The notes under the pieces: generated by a model
Database searches by the model: none
Told to the model about the DNA's origin: nothing
What the model saw: only the letters and a program-made list of their open reading frames with translations
In this document: one piece after another, positions 7,302 through 40,682 of the stretch
How the letters are laid out: every line of letters starts with the position of its first letter
Position numbering within the stretch: the stretch's first letter is position 1
NCBI GenBank assembly: GCA_030827125.1
Contig: JAURFD010000003.1
Coordinates: 65,607-129,606, forward strand
DNA length: 64,000 bases
Direction of reading: 5' to 3'
Source: Candidatus Nanopelagicales bacterium
GTDB taxonomy: Bacteria; Actinomycetota; Actinomycetes; S36-B12
Made by a program: the position numbers and the translations under genes

Positions 7302-7649
7302 CTAGGTTGCGTCGGGATCGAAGCGTGCCGGTTGTGCTTCGGCTTCGGGGGCGGACCCCGGCGTCTTCTTGCGGGGGGCGGCATCCACCTCATCGTCGTC
7401 ACCCTCAAGGAACGACTTCGCCAGCCGCTTGGGGTGCAGGTCCCGCAACTCATTGAGGGCGTCCTGGGCGTCCGACAGATCCACTCCGGCCGAGTCCGCG
7501 AGATCCTTGCGGGCGTTGCCCGCCATCGCCTTGACGTTGCGCAGGGTGCGAGCGGCGTCGGCCGCGGCGCGGGGCAGCCGTTCGGGGCCAAAAATGAGCA
7601 GCCCGATCACGGCCAGGATCATGATCTCGCCGAGGCCGATGTCGAACAC
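7302..7649 (-). CDS. tatB: Sec-independent protein translocase subunit, TatA/B family (TatB-like)
   Basis: The N-terminus MFDIGLGEIMILAVIGLLIFGPERLP is the Tat TM-plus-amphipathic-helix signature. The location next to mrp matches other actinobacteria. Confidence 0.75.
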   Translation of the reverse strand: MFDIGLGEIMILAVIGLLIFGPERLPRAAADAARTLRNVKAMAGNARKDLADSAGVDLSDAQDALNELRDLHPKRLAKSFLEGDDDEVDAAPRKKTPGSAPEAEAQPARFDPDAT

Positions 7650-32841: not shown

Positions 32842-34260
32842 ATGTCAGCAGGGTGGCGCGATCGCAGCGAAGCGAGCGAGTGCTCGTGGGATTCGCTGCC
32901 GCCCGGCCCGGGCTTGGCAGCAAAGTTGGCCGAGATCGATCCCGGCACGCTTGATGACAGCGATCGCGTCGCCTACCTCGCGGCGACTGACCGGCTTCTG
33001 GGCTGGAGCCACATGCTTCAAGCCAAGGCGTTGGTCGCGGTGTCCGATGCCGTGTGCGCCGCCACGGCGACACCGAACGTCGAGTTCTCGTCGCATCAGC
33101 AGGGCTGGGTCGCCGACGAGGTCGCGGCGGCGTTACACATTGCGGCACGCACGGCGACGGGCAGGGTCAACGCCGCGAGCGCCCTGGTGCGCGACTGGCC
33201 ACGTCTCGGCGAGGCCGTAGCTTCCGGGGAGTTGACCCTCGGGCAAGCCCGTGAGGTCTACGAAGCAGCGTCGATCCTGTCGGGCTGTGCCGACGAGACC
33301 GGCGCCGACCTCTCCGACCGCGCGGTGGAGATGTCGATGTTCTTCGCCCGTGATCTGCCGCCCGCGCGACTTCGTGAGCGCATGAACCGTCTGGTGTCCT
33401 CACTCGATCCGGAGGCCGCCACGCGGCGCCGGCGGCGAGCAGAGCGGGACCGCACTGACGTCTCGATGTGGGCCGAGGCAGACGGGATCGCCTGCCTGTC
33501 AGCCCGCGGTCCGTCCCTGGACACGGTGGCCGTCCGGGACCTGATCGACGCGCGGGCCCGCGCCATGCGCCAGGCCGCCGACGAGGGCGACGACCGCACC
33601 CTCGGCCAGTGGCGCCATGCAGCCCTGCTGAGCGCTTTTGGGCTCGCTCCGGTGGGTCGCGTTGGTGTGCGTCGGGCAGGCGACGAGTCCACGGCGACGG
33701 CTTTGAGCGAGCCAGCGTCTGTCGTGGACGATCCCCCGCTCACTCACCCGGATGTGCAGATCCGGGTCACCGTTCCCCTGACCACCCTCTTCGGCCTGAC
33801 CGACACACCCGGTGAACTCGAGGGTTTCGGTCCACTGGACCCGGAGTTGGTGCGCGCTCTAGCCGCCGATGCACAGTGGCAGCGCTGGGTGACCGATCCG
33901 GTCGGCGACTACCTCATCGACGAGGGTCGACAGCGGTTCCCCGGTGCGCGCCTGGCTCGGTTCCTGCGTGCCCGTGAGTCGCGCTGCAAGCACCCGTCCT
34001 GCGGTGTGCGCTCTCGCAACTGCGACGCAGACCACCTGCCGGCCTTCGGTGCGGGTGGCCAGACGTCCGCCCAGGGTCTGTCCCCCACCTGCCCGCGCCA
34101 CAATCGCGGCCGGGTCGCTTCCGGGTGGAGGGTTGAGGAGGATGGGCCGAAGGATCCACACGGTCCGCCCGACCCGATCTGGGTGAGCACACTAGGGCGG
34201 CGCTACGAGAACTCGATGCCCGCCGTGTTCACCGACGACTACATACCCCTCCGGAGATAA
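32842..34260 (+). CDS. DUF222 / HNH endonuclease (REP13E12-type) protein
   Basis: An N-terminal DUF222-like region is followed by a C-terminal HNH motif (CKHPSCGVRSRNCDADHLPAFGAGGQTSAQGLSPTCPRHN). Confidence 0.85.
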   Translation: MSAGWRDRSEASECSWDSLPPGPGLAAKLAEIDPGTLDDSDRVAYLAATDRLLGWSHMLQAKALVAVSDAVCAATATPNVEFSSHQQGWVADEVAAALHIAARTATGRVNAASALVRDWPRLGEAVASGELTLGQAREVYEAASILSGCADETGADLSDRAVEMSMFFARDLPPARLRERMNRLVSSLDPEAATRRRRRAERDRTDVSMWAEADGIACLSARGPSLDTVAVRDLIDARARAMRQAADEGDDRTLGQWRHAALLSAFGLAPVGRVGVRRAGDESTATALSEPASVVDDPPLTHPDVQIRVTVPLTTLFGLTDTPGELEGFGPLDPELVRALAADAQWQRWVTDPVGDYLIDEGRQRFPGARLARFLRARESRCKHPSCGVRSRNCDADHLPAFGAGGQTSAQGLSPTCPRHNRGRVASGWRVEEDGPKDPHGPPDPIWVSTLGRRYENSMPAVFTDDYIPLRR

Positions 34261-35375: not shown

Positions 35376-35521
35376 TCTGCGCTGATATCCATCCACCGCA
35401 CCACCGAGTCCTCGGCGTACATGCCCACCGCTCCCCGGCGTTCGGAATACGGCAGGTCATAGGCGACGAGGAACTCCCCGTTGACGCGGCAGCGTGTCTC
35501 GGTGAGTCCACATAGGGCTTC

Positions 35522-35836
35522 TCATCGCGGGCCCTGCTCTGCTCCGTATCCCGCGAATTCAAGAACTTCCCGACGGGAGAACGAAGGTCCGAACTGTTCG
35601 GGCGCCGGCCCCTCTCCGAGGAGGTGCTCGAACGCGGCCACGATGCGCTCGGCAGCATGTCCATCACCGAACGGATTGACCGCGTCGACCATCCGGGCGC
35701 GTTCTTCGGGGTGATCTAGCAACTCCAGGGCGTTCTGCTCGATCGCCTGCGGATCGGTGCCCACCAGTCGCAGAGTGCCGGCGCGCAGGCCCTCATGCCG
35801 TTCGGTGACATCCCGGCACACGAGCACCGGCTTCAC
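35522..35836 (-). pseudogene. wecB: UDP-N-acetylglucosamine 2-epimerase, detached C-terminal fragment
   Basis: KPVLVCRDVTERHEGLRAGTLRLVGTDPQAIEQNALELLD...NPFGDGHAAERIV is the C-terminal ~70 residues of non-hydrolysing epimerases. It lacks its own N-terminal 325 codons. Confidence 0.85.
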
Positions 35837-35848
35837 GACACCGGTATT

Positions 35849-35857
35849 AGGTGTCGG
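35849..35857. repeat. direct repeat copy 1 (AGGTGTCGG) at the insertion edge
   Basis: It is an exact match to 36780-36788 and lies 13 nt beyond the stop of the pentapeptide gene. Confidence 0.8.
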
Positions 35858-35870
35858 TGTGTCGTCTCTG

Positions 35871-36701
35871 TCAGCAGTCGCTGTTATTGGTGCTGCCGTC
35901 CGGCATCGTCGTGTTGCAGAAAACCGCGCCGGTCAGGTCCGCGCCATTCAGGTTTGCGCCGTTCAGGCTCGCGTTGGTCAGGTTTGCGCCGCTCAGGTAC
36001 GCGCCGGTCAGGTTCGCGCCGTTCAGGTACGCGCCGTTCAGGTACGCGCCGGTCAGGCTCGCCCCGGTCAGGTTCGCGCCGTTCAGGTGCGCGCCGTTCA
36101 GGCCCGCGTTGAGCAGGCCCGCACCGGTCAGGTTCGCGCCGGTCAGGCTCGCGCCATTCAGGTTCGTGTAGTACAGGGCCGCGTTGGTCAGGTTCGCACC
36201 GGTCAGGTTCGCACCGGTCAGGGTCGCGCCGGTTAGGGTCGCGTTGGTCAGGTTCGCGCCGGTCAGGTTCGCGCCGTACAGGTCTGCGTTTTGACAGTTG
36301 GGATCGCAGGCGGGTCCCGCCCGCATCACGCGACCGCGTGGTCTGCTTGATCTGGTGGGACTAAAGTTTGCCCCCACCAAGGATGCATCTTGCAGCTGTG
36401 CGTGGCGTAGGACCACTGCCCGGAAGTTGGCCTCGTTCAGGCGCGCACCCCGCAGATCGGCTCCTTGGAGTTTGGCCCGAGCGAACTTCGCCCCTCGAAG
36501 GTCACCATGATGTGTAAACGTCCACTTCTGGACCACGTCCCGGCAGTCCGCCCCGGGTCCGGGCACACAGGCGATTTTGCCGGTGCCGATCCGATCCCCC
36601 GGTGCCGCCGCCACCGCCGGGGCGATCAAACCGCCCGCCAACACAACCCCGGCAGACCCTGCCACCAACACCCGACGCCACCACACACCCTGTCCAGTCA
36701 T
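35871..36701 (-). CDS. exported pentapeptide-repeat protein
   Basis: A signal peptide with twin Arg is present (MTGQGVWWRRVLVAGSAGVVLAGGLIAPAVAAAP). The body has 10 plus 24 consecutive A(D/N)LxG-type pentapeptides and Cys-containing caps. The ATG at 36701 is preferred, and GTG at 36737 is possible. Confidence 0.8.
   Translation of the reverse strand: MTGQGVWWRRVLVAGSAGVVLAGGLIAPAVAAAPGDRIGTGKIACVPGPGADCRDVVQKWTFTHHGDLRGAKFARAKLQGADLRGARLNEANFRAVVLRHAQLQDASLVGANFSPTRSSRPRGRVMRAGPACDPNCQNADLYGANLTGANLTNATLTGATLTGANLTGANLTNAALYYTNLNGASLTGANLTGAGLLNAGLNGAHLNGANLTGASLTGAYLNGAYLNGANLTGAYLSGANLTNASLNGANLNGADLTGAVFCNTTMPDGSTNNSDC
35928..36287 (-). repeat. 24 tandem 15-bp units (coding pentapeptide repeats)
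   Basis: The sequence is visibly periodic, e.g. GCGCCGGTCAGGTTC and GCGCCGTTCAGGTAC. Each 15-bp unit encodes ANLTG, AYLNG and similar pentapeptides on the minus strand. Confidence 0.9.
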
Positions 36702-36779
36702 TCCGCGACCGTAACCGGCCCACGCAACGCAGTCCACCCCACACGACGAAAACCCCCGACGACGGACACACCAGGGTCA

Positions 36780-36788
36780 AGGTGTCGG
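36780..36788. repeat. direct repeat copy 2 (AGGTGTCGG) at the insertion edge
   Basis: It is an exact match to 35849-35857 and lies at the point where epimerase homology stops (…EEGPSVGTP). Confidence 0.8.
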
Positions 36789-37761
36789 GGGTCCCGACGC
36801 TTGGGCCCTCCTCCTGGATTCCCCCGGAGTCCGAGATAGCCAGCGTCGCCGCCTTGAGCAAGCGGGCGAATACCGCGTAGTCCAGTGGCTCGGTGATGAT
36901 CACATTGGGGAGTGGATCGAGGATCGGCCGCATCTCGTGCGCCACTCGGGGATTGGGATGCAGCGGCAGGACCGCAGTGAGATCCGGCCGCGCCCGGCAC
37001 ACGCGCGCAACGCCCTCCGCAATGCCGGCCAGCCCCCCGCCCCAATTCTCGCGTCGATGCGCCGTGACAACGAGGAGCGGCCGTCCGTCATCAACGCCCT
37101 CAAGTCGAGCGTCGGGCCATGGTGCCTGGAGATTCGCGGCCCACTGCAAGGCATCAATGCCGGTATTGCCACTGACGAAGATGAGTTCGCCGGAGATACC
37201 TTCGCGAATCAGCGACTCCTTGTTGTCGAGTGTGGGCGCAATGTGGAAGGAGGACAGGGTCGTGAGCACTCGACGGTTCAGTTCTTCGGGGAACGGCATG
37301 AGCATGTTGTTGGAACGAAGTCCGGCCTCCAGATGGAAGACCGGTAGCCGCGCGTTCGCCGACGCGAGCCCCGCAGCCATGGCCGAGGTCGTGTCGCCGT
37401 GGACCAGCGTGAAACCGGGAAACGCACCCTCGCCGCCCTCGACGGCACCCTGCAATCTCGGCCGACCGCGGCGTTCGGCGACTCCACCCCGCAACTCCTT
37501 CAGCAGGTCCTCGATTGCACGCACCACGCGGTAGGTAACGCCGTTCAGGGTCTGCTCCGGCCGCGCCACGGCAAGGTCGACATCGGGCTCGACGCCTGCA
37601 AGCCTGAGGACGTCGTTCACCAAGTCCTCATGCTGACCGGTCGAAACGACCACCGGACGAATTGATTCGGAGTCACGCAAAGCGAGGATGACCGGGAGCA
37701 CCTTGATCGCCTCTGGCCGGGTGCCGACGACGATCAGGCACGGTGTTTGAGGCTTTGCCAT
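36787..37761 (-). pseudogene. wecB: UDP-N-acetylglucosamine 2-epimerase, N-terminal 325 codons (truncated by insertion)
   Basis: MAKPQTPCLIVVGTRPEAIKVLPV...HGDTTSAMAAGLA...HLEAGLRS...VTAHRRENWG...ISDSGGIQEEGPSVGTP is collinear with WecB/MnaA. The ORF then reads through ~95 unrelated codons to a stop at 36502. Confidence 0.85.
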
Positions 37762-37802: not shown

Positions 37803-38534
37803 ATGAGGTATCGCGTAGCCTTGGCGATCGTGAGCGACGCGACCACCCCCACGGGACGCCTGTTCCGGTCGCTGCGTGCCGAAGGCTCAGCCGCCGACAA
37901 CGCGGTCCCCGCCCTCTCCCTTGATGAGGTGGTCGGGTTGCGCAGCGTGAGTCTGGCCAGCACGCACACTCCTGAGCCAACCCCGGAGGTCGTGACCGAA
38001 TCAGGCACGATGCCCGATCTGCCACCCGTGCCGGCGGCACCGACACCGGAACCCTTCGTCGCGCCGCCCCCGGCCGCACCTGCCCCCGTCGACGTCCTGA
38101 CGGGGGGTGCCGCAACTCCCCCACCACCGCGACGGGGAGGCGCGCACGCCCAGCGAGGTATCGGCGCGGGCAGTGTCTGGCTCATCGTCATCGGAGTCAC
38201 CGTCGTCATGGCCTTCGCCGACGCGCTGGTCATGAGGCAGGTCGGCCTGGGGTGGCTCACCGGAGTCGCCCTCGTCGTCGCGAGCGTCTACGCAGCATTC
38301 ACCGTCCGCATCGATGACGCGATCATCGCAGTCGTCGCGCCGCCACTGGCGTTCTTCCTCGCCACGTTGACCGCCGGTCAACTCACCGTGAGCACATCCG
38401 GAGACCTACTCGTCAACGAGGCCTTCATGATCGTGACGACCTTGGGCACCAACGCCCTATGGATCTTCGGGGCGACCATCGCAGCCCTCATCATCGTCCT
38501 GGTGCGTCGCGGGCTCAGCCGCCGGCAGCCTTAA
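37803..38534 (+). CDS. membrane protein (DUF6542-like) with Pro-rich N-terminal region
   Basis: The C-terminal half has 4 TM helices ([20 protein letters not shown]..., [15 protein letters not shown]...). The true start is uncertain. Confidence 0.55.
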
Positions 38535-39468
38535 GGTCCCGACGCAACTCCGGCGGAAGAGCGAACACCAAGGTTTCCTCCGCTGACGTCACTTCCTCGA
38601 CATCATCAAAGCCGCGCTCCGCGAGGTAGGCCAACACACCGTCGACGAGAGTCTCCGGCACAGAGGCACCTGATGTGATACCCACGATCTCGGCACCTGT
38701 GAGCCAGGCTTCCTCGATCTCGTCGGCGGCATCGATGCGGTACGCCGCCGTCGCGCCCGCTTCGAGTGCCACCTCGACGAGGCGCACCGAATTGGACGAG
38801 TTGCCCGACCCCACGACGATCACGAGGTCGCATTCGGGGGCAATGTCCTTCACTGCCGCCTGGCGGTTCTGGGTGGCGTAGCAGATGTCATCACTCGGGG
38901 GGCTCTGCAATTGCGGGAAGCGGCCCTTGAGCCGATCAACCGTCTCGAGGGTTTCGTCTACGGACAGTGTGGTCTGGGAGAGCCAGATGACCGGGCGCTC
39001 CGCGTCGATCGCGACCTGGTCGGCGTCATCCGGAGATTCCACGAGCGTCATGGCGTCCGGGGCCTCCCCCATCGTCCCGACAACTTCCTCGTGGCCTTCG
39101 TGCCCGATGAGCAGGATCTGCATGCCATCGCCGGCGAAGCGCTTCGCCTCGGAGTGCACCTTGGTCACCAACGGGCAGGTCGCGTCAATGGTCTTCAACT
39201 GCCGATCGGTGGCCTCCGCATGCACGGACGGGGCAACCCCGTGCGCGGAGAAGACCACGGTCGAGCCCTCGGGCACCTCGTCAAGTTCCTCGACGAAGAC
39301 CGCGCCGCGCGCCTGCAATTGCTCGACGACGTAGCGGTTATGCACGATCTGCTTGCGGACGTAGACGGGGGCGCCGTAGAGGTCCAGGGCCTTTTCGACG
39401 GTGACCACAGCTCGGTCCACGCCGGCGCAGTATCCGCGGGGCGCTGCAAGGAGAACTCTCTTCGGCAT
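38515..39468 (-). CDS. ispH: 4-hydroxy-3-methylbut-2-enyl diphosphate reductase
   Basis: [21 protein letters not shown]...IVHN...[10 protein letters not shown]...SSNS are IspH/LytB hallmarks. The ATG at 39468 was chosen as the start. Confidence 0.95.
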
Positions 39469-39536
39469 TCCCCCATCGTAGGTGGAGAGGTCAGATGTGG
39501 CCTGCGGCGGCATGAGCGGCCCCGTAGCCTGCGCCC

Positions 39537-40682
39537 ATGGGTCTGGAAACATCCGCGGAGTCACCGGCCGCCGTCCGGACGGTGTCACACCTGCTCGCGG
39601 ACTGGATCGGTCGGCTCGGGTCGATCTGGATCGAGGGTCAGATCGCACAGATCAGCAGGCGTCCAGGCATGCGCACCGCGTGGGTGACCCTGCGTGATAC
39701 CGACGCCGACCTGTCGCTGACGGTCGTCACCGATGTCGCCCTCCTCGGCGCGACCACCCCGCCACTCACCGAGGGCCAGCGCGTCATCGTGCATGGCAAG
39801 CCGGAGTTCTATGAGGGCCGCGGCACGCTGCAGATCCGCGCCCGCGAATTCCGAGCGGTGGGTCGGGGTGCGCTGCTGGAAGAGATCGAACGCCTCCGAG
39901 CGCTCTTCGAAGCCGAGGGCCTCTTCGCCGCCGCGCGCAAGCGTCCCCTGCCCTTCCTGCCGCGCCGGGTGGGGCTCATCAGTGGTCGAGCCAGCGCCGC
40001 CTTGACCGACGTGGTGGAGAACGCCGAACGCCGCTGGCCGGCCGTGACGTTCGAGATTCGGGAGGTTGCCGTGCAGGGCGCGAGCGCCGTGACCGCCATG
40101 GTCGCCGCCCTCAGTGACCTCAACGACGTACCCGAGGTAGATGTCATTGTCATCGCCCGCGGCGGCGGCAGTGTCGAAGATCTGCTGCCCTTCAGCAACG
40201 AGCGACTCGTGCGCGCCGTCGTGGCCTCTCGGGTGCCGGTGGTGAGCGCGATCGGTCACGAGAAGGACGTGCCGCTCATTGACCTGGTGGCCGACCTGCG
40301 CGCGTCCACCCCCACTGATGCGGCCAAGCGGATCATCCCGGACCTCGCCGAGGAGATCGCCCTCATCGCGGGAGCGCGCGAACGCACGCGCCGAGCCGTA
40401 TCCCGTCGCCTCACCGCGGAGGTCGATCTCATCGACCGCCAACGCCGGTCGCTGCATCGGTCCCTGACCTCGCGGATCACCCATGGTCGCCATGACCTTG
40501 AGCACCTGGTCGCGCGCCTCACCGCCTTGTCACCGGCGGCCACACTGGAGCGCGGGTACGCCGTCGTCCGCACCCTGGACGGCGCGGTCGTCCGCGACGT
40601 CGCCGATATCTCGTCGGGGGATCACCTCGGTGTGCGCGTCGCCCATGGCGGGTTCACCGTCCAGGTCCAGGATCTAGGGTGA
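39537..40682 (+). CDS. xseA: exodeoxyribonuclease VII large subunit
   Basis: It has an OB-fold N-terminus ([15 protein letters not shown]...WVTLRD), a catalytic core ([29 protein letters not shown]) and a coiled-coil tail. Confidence 0.9.

Follow-up and report, generated by a model that had tools for sequence, protein, structure and literature searches.

A pentapeptide-repeat gene with a predicted export signal on a 959-bp cassette within wecB of a 'Candidatus Nanopelagicales' genome

Of the very numerous pentapeptide-repeat proteins, only a few have a known function, and those few are mainly cytoplasmic protectors of gyrase. The pentapeptide-repeat gene at positions 35871-36701 (minus strand) of the 64,000-nt stretch of 'Candidatus Nanopelagicales' DNA analysed here, hereafter the window, raises two questions: how did a complete gene of this kind come to lie inside wecB, a cell-wall sugar gene that encodes UDP-GlcNAc 2-epimerase, and what sort of protein does it specify? 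An initial annotation of the window had described it as a cargo gene for an exported protein with cysteine caps. Our reading, which we hold at a probability of about 0.6, is that a small exported pentapeptide-repeat β-helix is encoded on a self-contained, transposase-less cassette of 959 bp inserted in wecB. The observations that carry this reading are the anatomy of the protein and the cassette, the precision of the insertion, the presence of the same unit at other sites, length variation of the repeat array and purifying selection on the gene.

An insertion that splits wecB

The open reading frame (ORF) runs from an ATG at 36701 to a TGA at 35871-35873 and encodes 276 amino acids (aa); an alternative GTG start at 36737 would give 288 aa, and most relatives begin at the equivalent of the ATG. 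On either side lie two pieces of wecB on the same strand, the N-terminal 324 codons (36791-37761; Epimerase_2 profile positions 68-280) and a C-terminal fragment (35522-35831; profile positions 279-346). Related loci L038 and L048-L051 carry the site empty, as GCGTCGGGAC/GCCGGTGCTCG (the slash marks the insertion point), with 96-97% nucleotide identity to the window in L038 and 98.5-99.4% in L048-L051, and the window carries it occupied, as GCGTCGGGAC/CCCCGACACC...GGTGTCGTGAA/GCCGGTGCTCG. Comparison of the two states places the insert at 35832-36790, between the AC and the G of a wecB Thr codon, with no target duplication and no ambiguous base. The description of the gene as cargo is thus borne out by a 959-bp insertion that splits wecB and by the recovery of its empty sites. 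The occupied allele was present on 8 contigs of independent ENA, JGI and Logan assemblies and is therefore not an assembly artefact. A reconstructed WecB, used as query, retrieved intact orthologues (97% identity; P0121) and, on several contigs, the truncated protein (P0122).

The insertion is recent. No disabling mutation was seen in wecB besides the insertion itself, and the N-terminal part is 98.5% identical to the intact allele of L048 and 96% to that of L038, while the C-terminal fragment is 99.4% identical to L048. Compared with L038, the ratio of non-synonymous to synonymous substitution rates (dN/dS) of wecB is 0.14 upstream of the insertion and 0.77 downstream, the latter from 8 changes only, and wecB is probably dispensable here. 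The N-terminal frame reads on into the cassette as far as 36502 (ORF 36502-37761), and the cassette-terminal GTGAA, joined to the host G, supplies the C-terminal fragment with an in-frame GTG-AAG that could serve as its start (ORF 35522-35836).

The surface-glycan locus at this site varies between strains. Alleles with the empty site all have, after wecB, an ORF of 647 or 651 aa and then a GT2 glycosyltransferase; in the window and in L039 and L040, wecB is followed by RmuC, and the rest of the 651-aa gene and the GT2 gene are absent. Of the 651-aa gene, the window retains no more than the initial 43 nt, which lie before RmuC (35483-35525, minus strand; homology to L048 ends about 40 nt beyond the stop codon of wecB), so this lineage has lost the downstream part of the glycan operon by deletion. 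Strain-variable surface-glycan loci are often linked to phage-host arms races.

Cassette ends and possible modes of movement

Read on the minus strand, the cassette consists of a left-end hairpin, a probable promoter, the ORF and a right-end hairpin. The left end (36754-36790; CCCCGACACCTTGACCCTGGTGTGTCCGTCGTCGGGG) forms an imperfect hairpin followed by GTTTTCG, a terminator-like arrangement that a scan for such elements matched at 36776-36754. The right end (35832-35870; CAGAGACGACACACCGACACCTAATACCGGTGTCGTGAA) terminates in ...GACGACACACCGACACCTAATACCGGTGTCGTGAA and forms a hairpin with a 7-bp stem, its arms CGACACC and GGTGTCG lying at 35836-35856; DNA searches of the window with this hairpin found this site only. 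The two end sequences, CCCGACACCT on the left and CCGACACCTAATNCNGGTGTCGTGAA on the right, have the core CCGACACCT in common. Folded as DNA, the right end gave z-scores of -2.3 and -2.5 on the two strands, and the left end gave -7.2 kcal/mol (z -0.7) on the coding strand and -10.6 kcal/mol (z -2.1) on the complement. Between the left end and the ATG, a probable promoter occupies 36708-36736 (minus strand), with a -35 element TGGACT (36736-36731), a 17-nt spacer and a -10 element TACGGT (36713-36708). A strict sigma-70 scan had no match in this region, and the promoter is called from actinobacterial -10 rules and from conservation, the TGGACT and TAC..T positions being invariant in the alignment of copies, where the promoter-like stretch is the most conserved non-coding part. 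Its -10 element lies 6 nt before the ATG, which suggests a leaderless mRNA.

The unit is found at other sites. Homology to all 30-odd related loci, which derive from Actinomycetota and 'Candidatus Nanopelagicales' metagenome-assembled genomes and from aquatic metagenomes, is limited to the cassette (about 36789-35828), and none of these loci has wecB flanks. The same right end stands in other flanks in L006, L027, L017 and L020 (two copies), and in L015 copy 1 it abuts the next copy; the same left end recurs in L016 and in L015 copy 2. In L002, the unit comes after an ABC ATPase gene that is cut off past its signature motif. Tandem copies also occur: those of L015 abut right end to left end at a junction (L015 299-345) that reads GGTGTCG-TGAACC-CGACACC, a 7-6-7 palindrome, and L020 and L032 each hold two copies. 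Neither protein profile nor right-end DNA pattern matched viral contigs, giving no sign of phage carriage, and megablast against a plasmid collection yielded weak matches to generic pentapeptide-repeat genes only.

Single-strand transposition of the HUH type (IS200/IS605-like), with the enzyme acting in trans, fits these ends best because they are defined to the base, appear to carry hairpins in the same orientation, lack a duplication and apparently follow a short motif 5' of the insertion; we propose it tentatively. In such a scheme, an enzyme that recognises single-stranded hairpins would mobilise in trans the segment bounded by the two related hairpins that share CCGACACCT. The left flank is GGGAC in the window and GTGAA in L016, L015 copy 2 and L045, and the element itself ends in GTGAA, a pattern that covers four sites and was derived after seeing them.

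An alternative interpretation is that the unit is not a transposon at all, and that homologous recombination looped out one period of a tandem array as a circle, which entered wecB once by illegitimate recombination. The tandem arrays in L015, L020 and L032 speak for this, as do the scans that found no mobilising enzyme; in another clade, moreover, single copies have an upstream motif on each side, which decaying arrays would be expected to leave. We consider it unlikely, however, because the wecB breakpoints match to the base the ends seen elsewhere (on the left L016 and L015 copy 2, on the right L006, L020, L027 and L017), and those ends sit in unrelated flanks, which random opening of a circle would not reproduce.

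The motif of the other clade is a conserved stretch of about 80 nt (GCGCCGCTGCACCCGTCTCGTTAGGTGATTCGTCCACTATCTGCTGGGGGGAGAGAGGGAC...) that flanks the repeat-protein gene on the 5' side, the 3' side or both (L001/L004 988-1068 and 222-249; L023 3498-3578; L024 4770-4850; L022 3879-3944; L006 3617-3664; L019 3899-3926). Rfam searches of five related loci found tRNAs only, and the motif may be that clade's cassette boundary or an upstream remnant of decayed tandem copies. In L015 (about 1139-1165) and L018 (about 708-735), the right-end core CCGACACCT runs straight into left-end-like sequence (TGACCCTCGGAAG); 27 nt between the core repeats have apparently been deleted, and low-GC, foreign-looking DNA follows.

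Less likely still, in our judgement, is a tyrosine-type site-specific recombinase that acts on joined ends and integrates a double-stranded circle at look-alike sites. The palindromic junction of L015 would suit such an enzyme, the wecB target GTCGGGAC/GCC and the right-end junction GTCGTGAA/GCC agree at 9 of 11 positions, and several copies adjoin tRNA genes; but the two junctions have no common overlap or core, the crossover would fall at a single phosphodiester bond with no shared dinucleotide, and no integrase was found among the window ORFs scanned. The tRNA genes concerned lie within a few hundred bases of the copies (L001 1410-1483; L023 2271-2345; and in the 3' flanks of L002, L026 and L025).

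Other models were set aside. A serine recombinase would need a crossover dinucleotide, and none is common to both junctions and the target; an integron cassette would need attC core sites, which are missing, and a hairpin in another orientation; and a DDE-type transposon is contradicted by the absence of a duplication and by ends that match inversely over 11 nt only, and imperfectly (GGTGTGTC(C)GTC versus GACGACACACC). Nor does the target behave as a repeat element: copies of the 10-mer GCGTCGGGAC, three in L038 and two in the window, stand in unrelated contexts, and GTCGGGAC occurs nine times in the window with one site occupied.

The encoded protein and its repeat array

The 276-aa product, whose N-terminus begins MTGQGVWWRRVLVAGSAGVVLAGGLIAPAVAAAP, matches the Pfam family Pentapeptide (PF00805) with E=2.9e-51, and tblastn with it found a single copy in the window. 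All of its parts lie on the minus strand. A predicted signal peptide (aa 1-31; 36609-36701; MTGQGVWWRRVLVAGSAGVVLAGGLIAPAVA) with an AVA/A cleavage motif precedes the N-cap that defines the family (aa 32-65; 36507-36608), comprising GDRIGTGK and a CVPGPGADC loop (C45 and C53) with columns that are invariant in alignments. Block 1 (aa 66-115; 36357-36506), conserved and basic, has 10 pentapeptides, for which AlphaFold2 (AF2) models a strand every 5 residues. It is followed by an Arg-rich linker and the CDPNC motif (C132 and C136) that opens block 2 (36288-36356), and then by the variable array of 24 uninterrupted in-frame units of 15 bp with consensus ANLTG (35928-36287, delimited by Tandem Repeats Finder and unit mapping), which passes into AVFCN. 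The C-terminal cap, AVFCNTTMPDGSTNNSDC (C262 and C276), ends with the stop codon (35871-35927); it is kept in copies with differing arrays and is conserved as FCNTTMPDGSxNNS(D/G)C among copies of unlike array length. The six Cys residues, at 45, 53, 132, 136, 262 and 276, thus fall into three local pairs, within the motifs CVPGPGADC, CDPNC and FCN...SDC. The ORF with its exact N-terminus, the three Cys motifs and the succession of ten and then 24 pentapeptides had been described correctly from the outset, as had the coordinates of the 24 units, and the 10 and 24 contiguous repeats compare with the at least 8 contiguous A(D/N)LXX pentapeptides by which the superfamily is recognised.

The gene is maintained by selection and, on our reading, functional. 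dN/dS of the N-terminal domain (Nei-Gojobori) was 0.28-0.46 against 13 other copies, at synonymous divergences (dS) from 0.11 to 0.94 (synonymous sites were saturated in two further copies). The caps, like the basic block, evolve under purifying selection.

The fold is modelled as the right-handed quadrilateral β-helix of pentapeptide-repeat proteins, as initially proposed. AF2, run with an alignment of 27 sequences, gave a mean predicted local distance difference test score (pLDDT) of 76.8 and a predicted template modelling score of 0.72; pLDDT was 85-96 in the array, which shows a one-residue strand every five residues, and below 50 at residues 1-42 and in the linker at 119-129. The top Foldseek matches in the PDB were HetL, Np275/276, designed β1 solenoids, Qnr and MfpA, each at probability 1.0; AlbG, Rfr23, Rfr32 and TL15 were also found, and the 50 matches listed comprised four NleL chains and 46 pentapeptide-repeat proteins or designed repeat solenoids. 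A PDB sequence search agreed and added the periplasmic repeat region of DotG. The protein is nevertheless a generic member of the superfamily and not a Qnr, MfpA, HetL or PipB: scores against the named pentapeptide-repeat families of NCBIfam all fell far under the curated cut-offs (63 versus 240 for Qnr, 56 versus 360 for MfpA), and PADLOC defence models gave no hit.

Export was judged by comparing about 40 relatives that share the mature start GDxIGxGK..C.PGPxxxC. Every N-terminally complete relative has a positive n-region, an uncharged hydrophobic stretch and small residues at -3 and -1, directly followed by the mature start; in the window protein, two Arg residues precede 21 uncharged hydrophobic residues (mean Kyte-Doolittle hydropathy 2.08). 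The signal sequences themselves diverge between clades (MTGQGVWWRRVLVAG...APAVAAAP versus MFRKLFISS...SSAVASN) and the architecture alone is kept, as expected for a signal peptide. A 48-aa query (aa 33-80, the N-cap with the first three repeats) hit 66 clusters at E<=1e-3 among 1.84 billion representative proteins, with the matched segment mostly starting some 25-35 residues after the N-terminus. Export, claimed in the initial annotation, and cleavage of the signal peptide are therefore what we infer, since an n-h-c signal sequence is present in all of the about 40 family members. In the family alignment, Cys45, Cys53 and Cys136 are invariant and Cys132 and Cys276 at least 90% conserved, in keeping with the caps first suggested for them, and the three pairs may form disulfides.

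The proposal that the twin arginine marks a Tat signal did not hold. Only the high-GC clade has RR; its low-GC counterpart carries RK, NK or HK within a peptide typical of Sec export, so Tat is not supported as a family trait; the residues that flank RR in the consensus S/T-R-R-x-F-L-K are also absent. Sec is thus the more parsimonious and more likely route, as judged from the signal sequences. In the competing account the protein would be a Tat substrate, folded in the cytoplasm, recognised by its twin arginine and locked by disulfides outside the cell. The WRRVLV of the high-GC clade, followed by a Gly/Ala-rich region of moderate hydrophobicity, agrees with this, a TatA/B-family gene at 7302-7649 (minus strand) of the window indicates that the organism probably has the pathway, and a rigid β-helix could plausibly fold before export. 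We regard it as unlikely because MFRKLF, MFNKLF and MFHKLF in the low-GC clade lack RR, which may merely reflect GC-driven replacement of Lys by Arg in the other clade, and because the full consensus is missing. Disulfide-reliant proteins usually pass unfolded through Sec.

Two further alternatives concern where the protein resides. The hydrophobic stretch might remain uncleaved and leave a type-II anchored β-helix projecting from the membrane: 21 uncharged residues are enough to span one, and the protein sequence has no lipobox, LPXTG or other retention signal. We think this improbable because small -3/-1 residues (AVA/A, and SSA/xAS in the other clade) stand directly before a highly conserved mature N-terminus in every member. 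It is far less probable that the protein is a cytoplasmic DNA mimic of the Qnr/MfpA type that protects gyrase; the fold is common to both and there are weak NCBIfam matches to the Qnr and MfpA models, but these are the sub-threshold scores given above, the signal sequence is kept family-wide together with six conserved Cys, and the mature protein is basic (pI 9.0) and not acidic.

The mature protein would measure 24.7 kDa after loss of a probably Sec-type signal peptide of about 31 aa, and would comprise, in order, the N-cap with its Cys45-Cys53 loop, the strongly basic block of 10 repeats, CDPNC with the neutral array of 24 repeats, and the Cys262...Cys276 C-cap. Charge is split along it, residues 32-135 having pI 11.1 and net +9 and the array with the C-cap about -4. 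This distribution suggests a rod in the cell envelope, the basic half of which might hold it to anionic wall polymers while the variable half points away; we think this function less likely than not.

The initial annotation had called the 24 units near-identical. Their number and their similarity stand, but not near-identity: mean pairwise identity is 77%, identity to the consensus GCGAACCTGACCGGC (ANLTG) is 86%, and 5 of 276 pairs are identical. Tandem Repeats Finder reports 35925-36276 with period 15, 23.5 copies, 78% matches and 0 indels. The same residue is encoded by the same codon in 82% of unit pairs versus 40% expected from the codon usage of 17 genes in the window; Ala uses GCG 20 times in 24 and Leu uses CTG 23 times in 25, against the window's preference for GCC and CTC. 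The DNA is thus more uniform than the protein repeat requires, which points to recent duplication or conversion of units. Within the unit, entropy is about 0 at the inward A and L and 2.2-2.4 bits at the three outward positions.

Across the family, arrays range from about 5 to 28 units between the same N-cap and C-cap, and the steps are always whole pentapeptides. Near-identical alleles differ in unit number, as in a coding variable-number tandem repeat: L004 and L019 have 10 and 20 units at 99.9% identity over 866 nt that include the 5' flank, L045 and L018 have 16 and 17 units (one extra ANLND) at 98.8% identity over 2.4 kb, and L002 and L026 have 28 and 17 units with a common 3' flank. The stepwise length change that had been predicted is thus seen in the family, where alleles of the same locus differ by 1, 10 or 11 units, and not at the wecB locus, where the same 24 units recur. 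As we picture it, the array gains, loses and homogenises 15-bp units, and helix length would shift by quarter-turns between strains. The array is followed by a Pro-rich linker (EKIPPPPDPPPPPDEVPPNPP...) and a duplicate C-cap in two proteins (P0014 and P0026, from L046 and L047) that differ by 5 repeat units.

Among the wecB-locus contigs that are 99.9% identical, 6 of 7 differences fall within the 360-bp array (at 36037, at 36063 with three alleles, and at 36198), leaving aside a cluster of single-nucleotide polymorphisms (SNPs) near 38.7 kb; four further contigs with the occupied allele end inside the array or just upstream of it. The cluster (38671-38699, within the ispH/LytB ORF 38515-39648, minus strand) consists of 3-9 SNPs in 29 bp that set L039 and L042 apart from the window, and could be a small recombination tract.

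Significance and known counterparts

Several points weigh against our reading. Scans of the 64-kb window, including about 59 ORFs searched for transposase and recombinase domains, identified no mobilising enzyme, TnpA included, and pairing between guide and cleavage site of the IS608 type is not evident at the cassette ends. The end hairpins are weak, with z -0.7 for the left one when folded as the coding strand; nor is the left end universal, since L017, L045 and L020 copy 2 differ upstream. L039 and L040, the only other assemblies that span the insert, align to the window without a gap and have its 24 units, so that unit number at this locus does not change fast on the timescale of the spanning assemblies, and some of the array SNPs could be short-read assembly noise. 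The envelope role is drawn only from the charge distribution and from analogy with YjbI of Caulobacter, and the hydrophobic stretch, as noted, is long enough for a membrane anchor.

The remaining neighbourhood is housekeeping, with typA, ychF, rmuC, ispH, xseA, glpX and a fumarase gene. Two genes from the cassette, 32842-34260 (plus strand) encodes a 472-aa DUF222 protein with no PADLOC or NCBIfam match; the DUF222 family is tied to HNH and REP13E12-type repeats in mycobacteria.

It is possible, if doubtful, that the 959-bp unit is the first described of a group of tiny, transposase-less, hairpin-bounded cassettes in planktonic Actinomycetota that serve as mobile and self-diversifying modules of surface variation. 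Were this so, such cassettes would move promoter-plus-gene modules without duplication between sites, conserved genes included, and pile up in tandem, and the length of their secreted β-helix cargo would be diversified by turnover of 15-bp units; the module might be tied to the loss of wall-glycan operons and to escape from phage or grazers. The family adds to the pentapeptide-repeat proteins an actinobacterial, Cys-bracketed type, predicted to be exported, in which a conserved basic base carries a variable rod, and its natural series of 5 to 28 repeats is useful for relating β-helix length to function. More surprising than the protein is its carrier, which is below one kilobase, has hairpin ends and no enzyme of its own, and exists in occupied and empty states in nearly identical genomes. 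It is a tractable case for studying how genomes seemingly poor in insertion sequences move single genes, and it prompts one to ask whether enzymes that act in trans, of the HUH type or another, move cargo besides themselves. Literature searches that linked pentapeptide repeats with Nanopelagicales returned nothing, and those on length polymorphism of pentapeptide repeats nothing relevant.

Pentapeptide-repeat proteins that are extracytoplasmic and disulfide-capped have been described before; the contrast with Qnr and MfpA drawn in the initial annotation is real, but the kind is not new. Among the lumenal or periplasmic ones of cyanobacteria and chloroplasts, Rfr32 carries a signal peptide of 29 residues and Rfr23 a disulfide bracket; both Rfr32 and TL15 of the thylakoid lumen, the latter with 25 uninterrupted repeats, have a C-cap stabilised by a disulfide (PMC8145042). 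All three (structures 2F3L/2G0Y for Rfr32, 2O6W for Rfr23 and 3N90 for Arabidopsis TL15, At2g44920) were among both the sequence and the fold matches of the window protein, with which they share an N-terminal signal, an uninterrupted helix of the Rfr fold and caps, the signal and the disulfides of the window protein being putative ones. Their C-cap, however, is α-helical with the disulfide on the helix pair, whereas the window protein has short loops bracketed by Cys, of which it has three pairs; the N-cap GDRIGTGK..CVPGPGxxC..KWxFxHHGD is restricted to a small family in actinobacteria; and none of the three is reported to be mobile or length-variable. YjbI of Caulobacter crescentus has a Sec-type signal (residues 1-24) and four Cys, its export was shown experimentally, and it resides and acts in the cell envelope, not on DNA (PMC12864828). 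It resembles the window protein, for which export is predicted from sequence, in its Sec-type signal and its Cys; it differs in its Gram-negative host with an outer membrane and lipopolysaccharide, shows no sign of a variable array or mobile cassette, and has no specific sequence similarity to the window protein beyond the repeats.

For the carrier, the closest counterparts are IS200/IS605 elements and their transposase-less derivatives, the palindrome-associated transposable elements. Subterminal imperfect palindromes of IS608 direct insertion 3' of TTAC with no DNA gained or lost (PMC3201880), and in Borrelia IS605-type stem-loops are reported to be linked to lipoprotein genes, which places them beside genes for surface proteins (PMC2775950). 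The cassette likewise appears to have imperfect palindromes in the same orientation at both ends; it lacks the terminal inverted repeats of DDE-type elements and is inserted, with the target unchanged, 3' of what may be a short motif. Unlike in these elements, its hairpins abut the ends and do not lie 10-19 nt inside, guide/cleavage complementarity is not visible, no TnpA was found in the window, a whole gene is carried together with its probable promoter, and the left end differs in some copies.

Integron cassettes are alike in having one ORF in about 1 kb, a 3' hairpin-forming site, no recombinase of their own and tandem arrays. The window cassette, by contrast, has no RYYYAAC/GTTRRRY core sites, brings its own probable promoter and is inserted in a housekeeping gene and not at attI, and its 5' end repeats the left arm of the 3' hairpin instead of complementing it.

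The array itself recalls the variable-repeat surface proteins of contingency loci, of which the mycobacterial PPE-MPTR proteins are an actinobacterial example. Like these, it is built of short in-frame units with homogenised codons, and unit numbers differ between close strains; unlike them, each of its units would be one face of a rigid β-helix, so that length changes in quarter-turn steps with the caps kept and with no on/off frameshifting.

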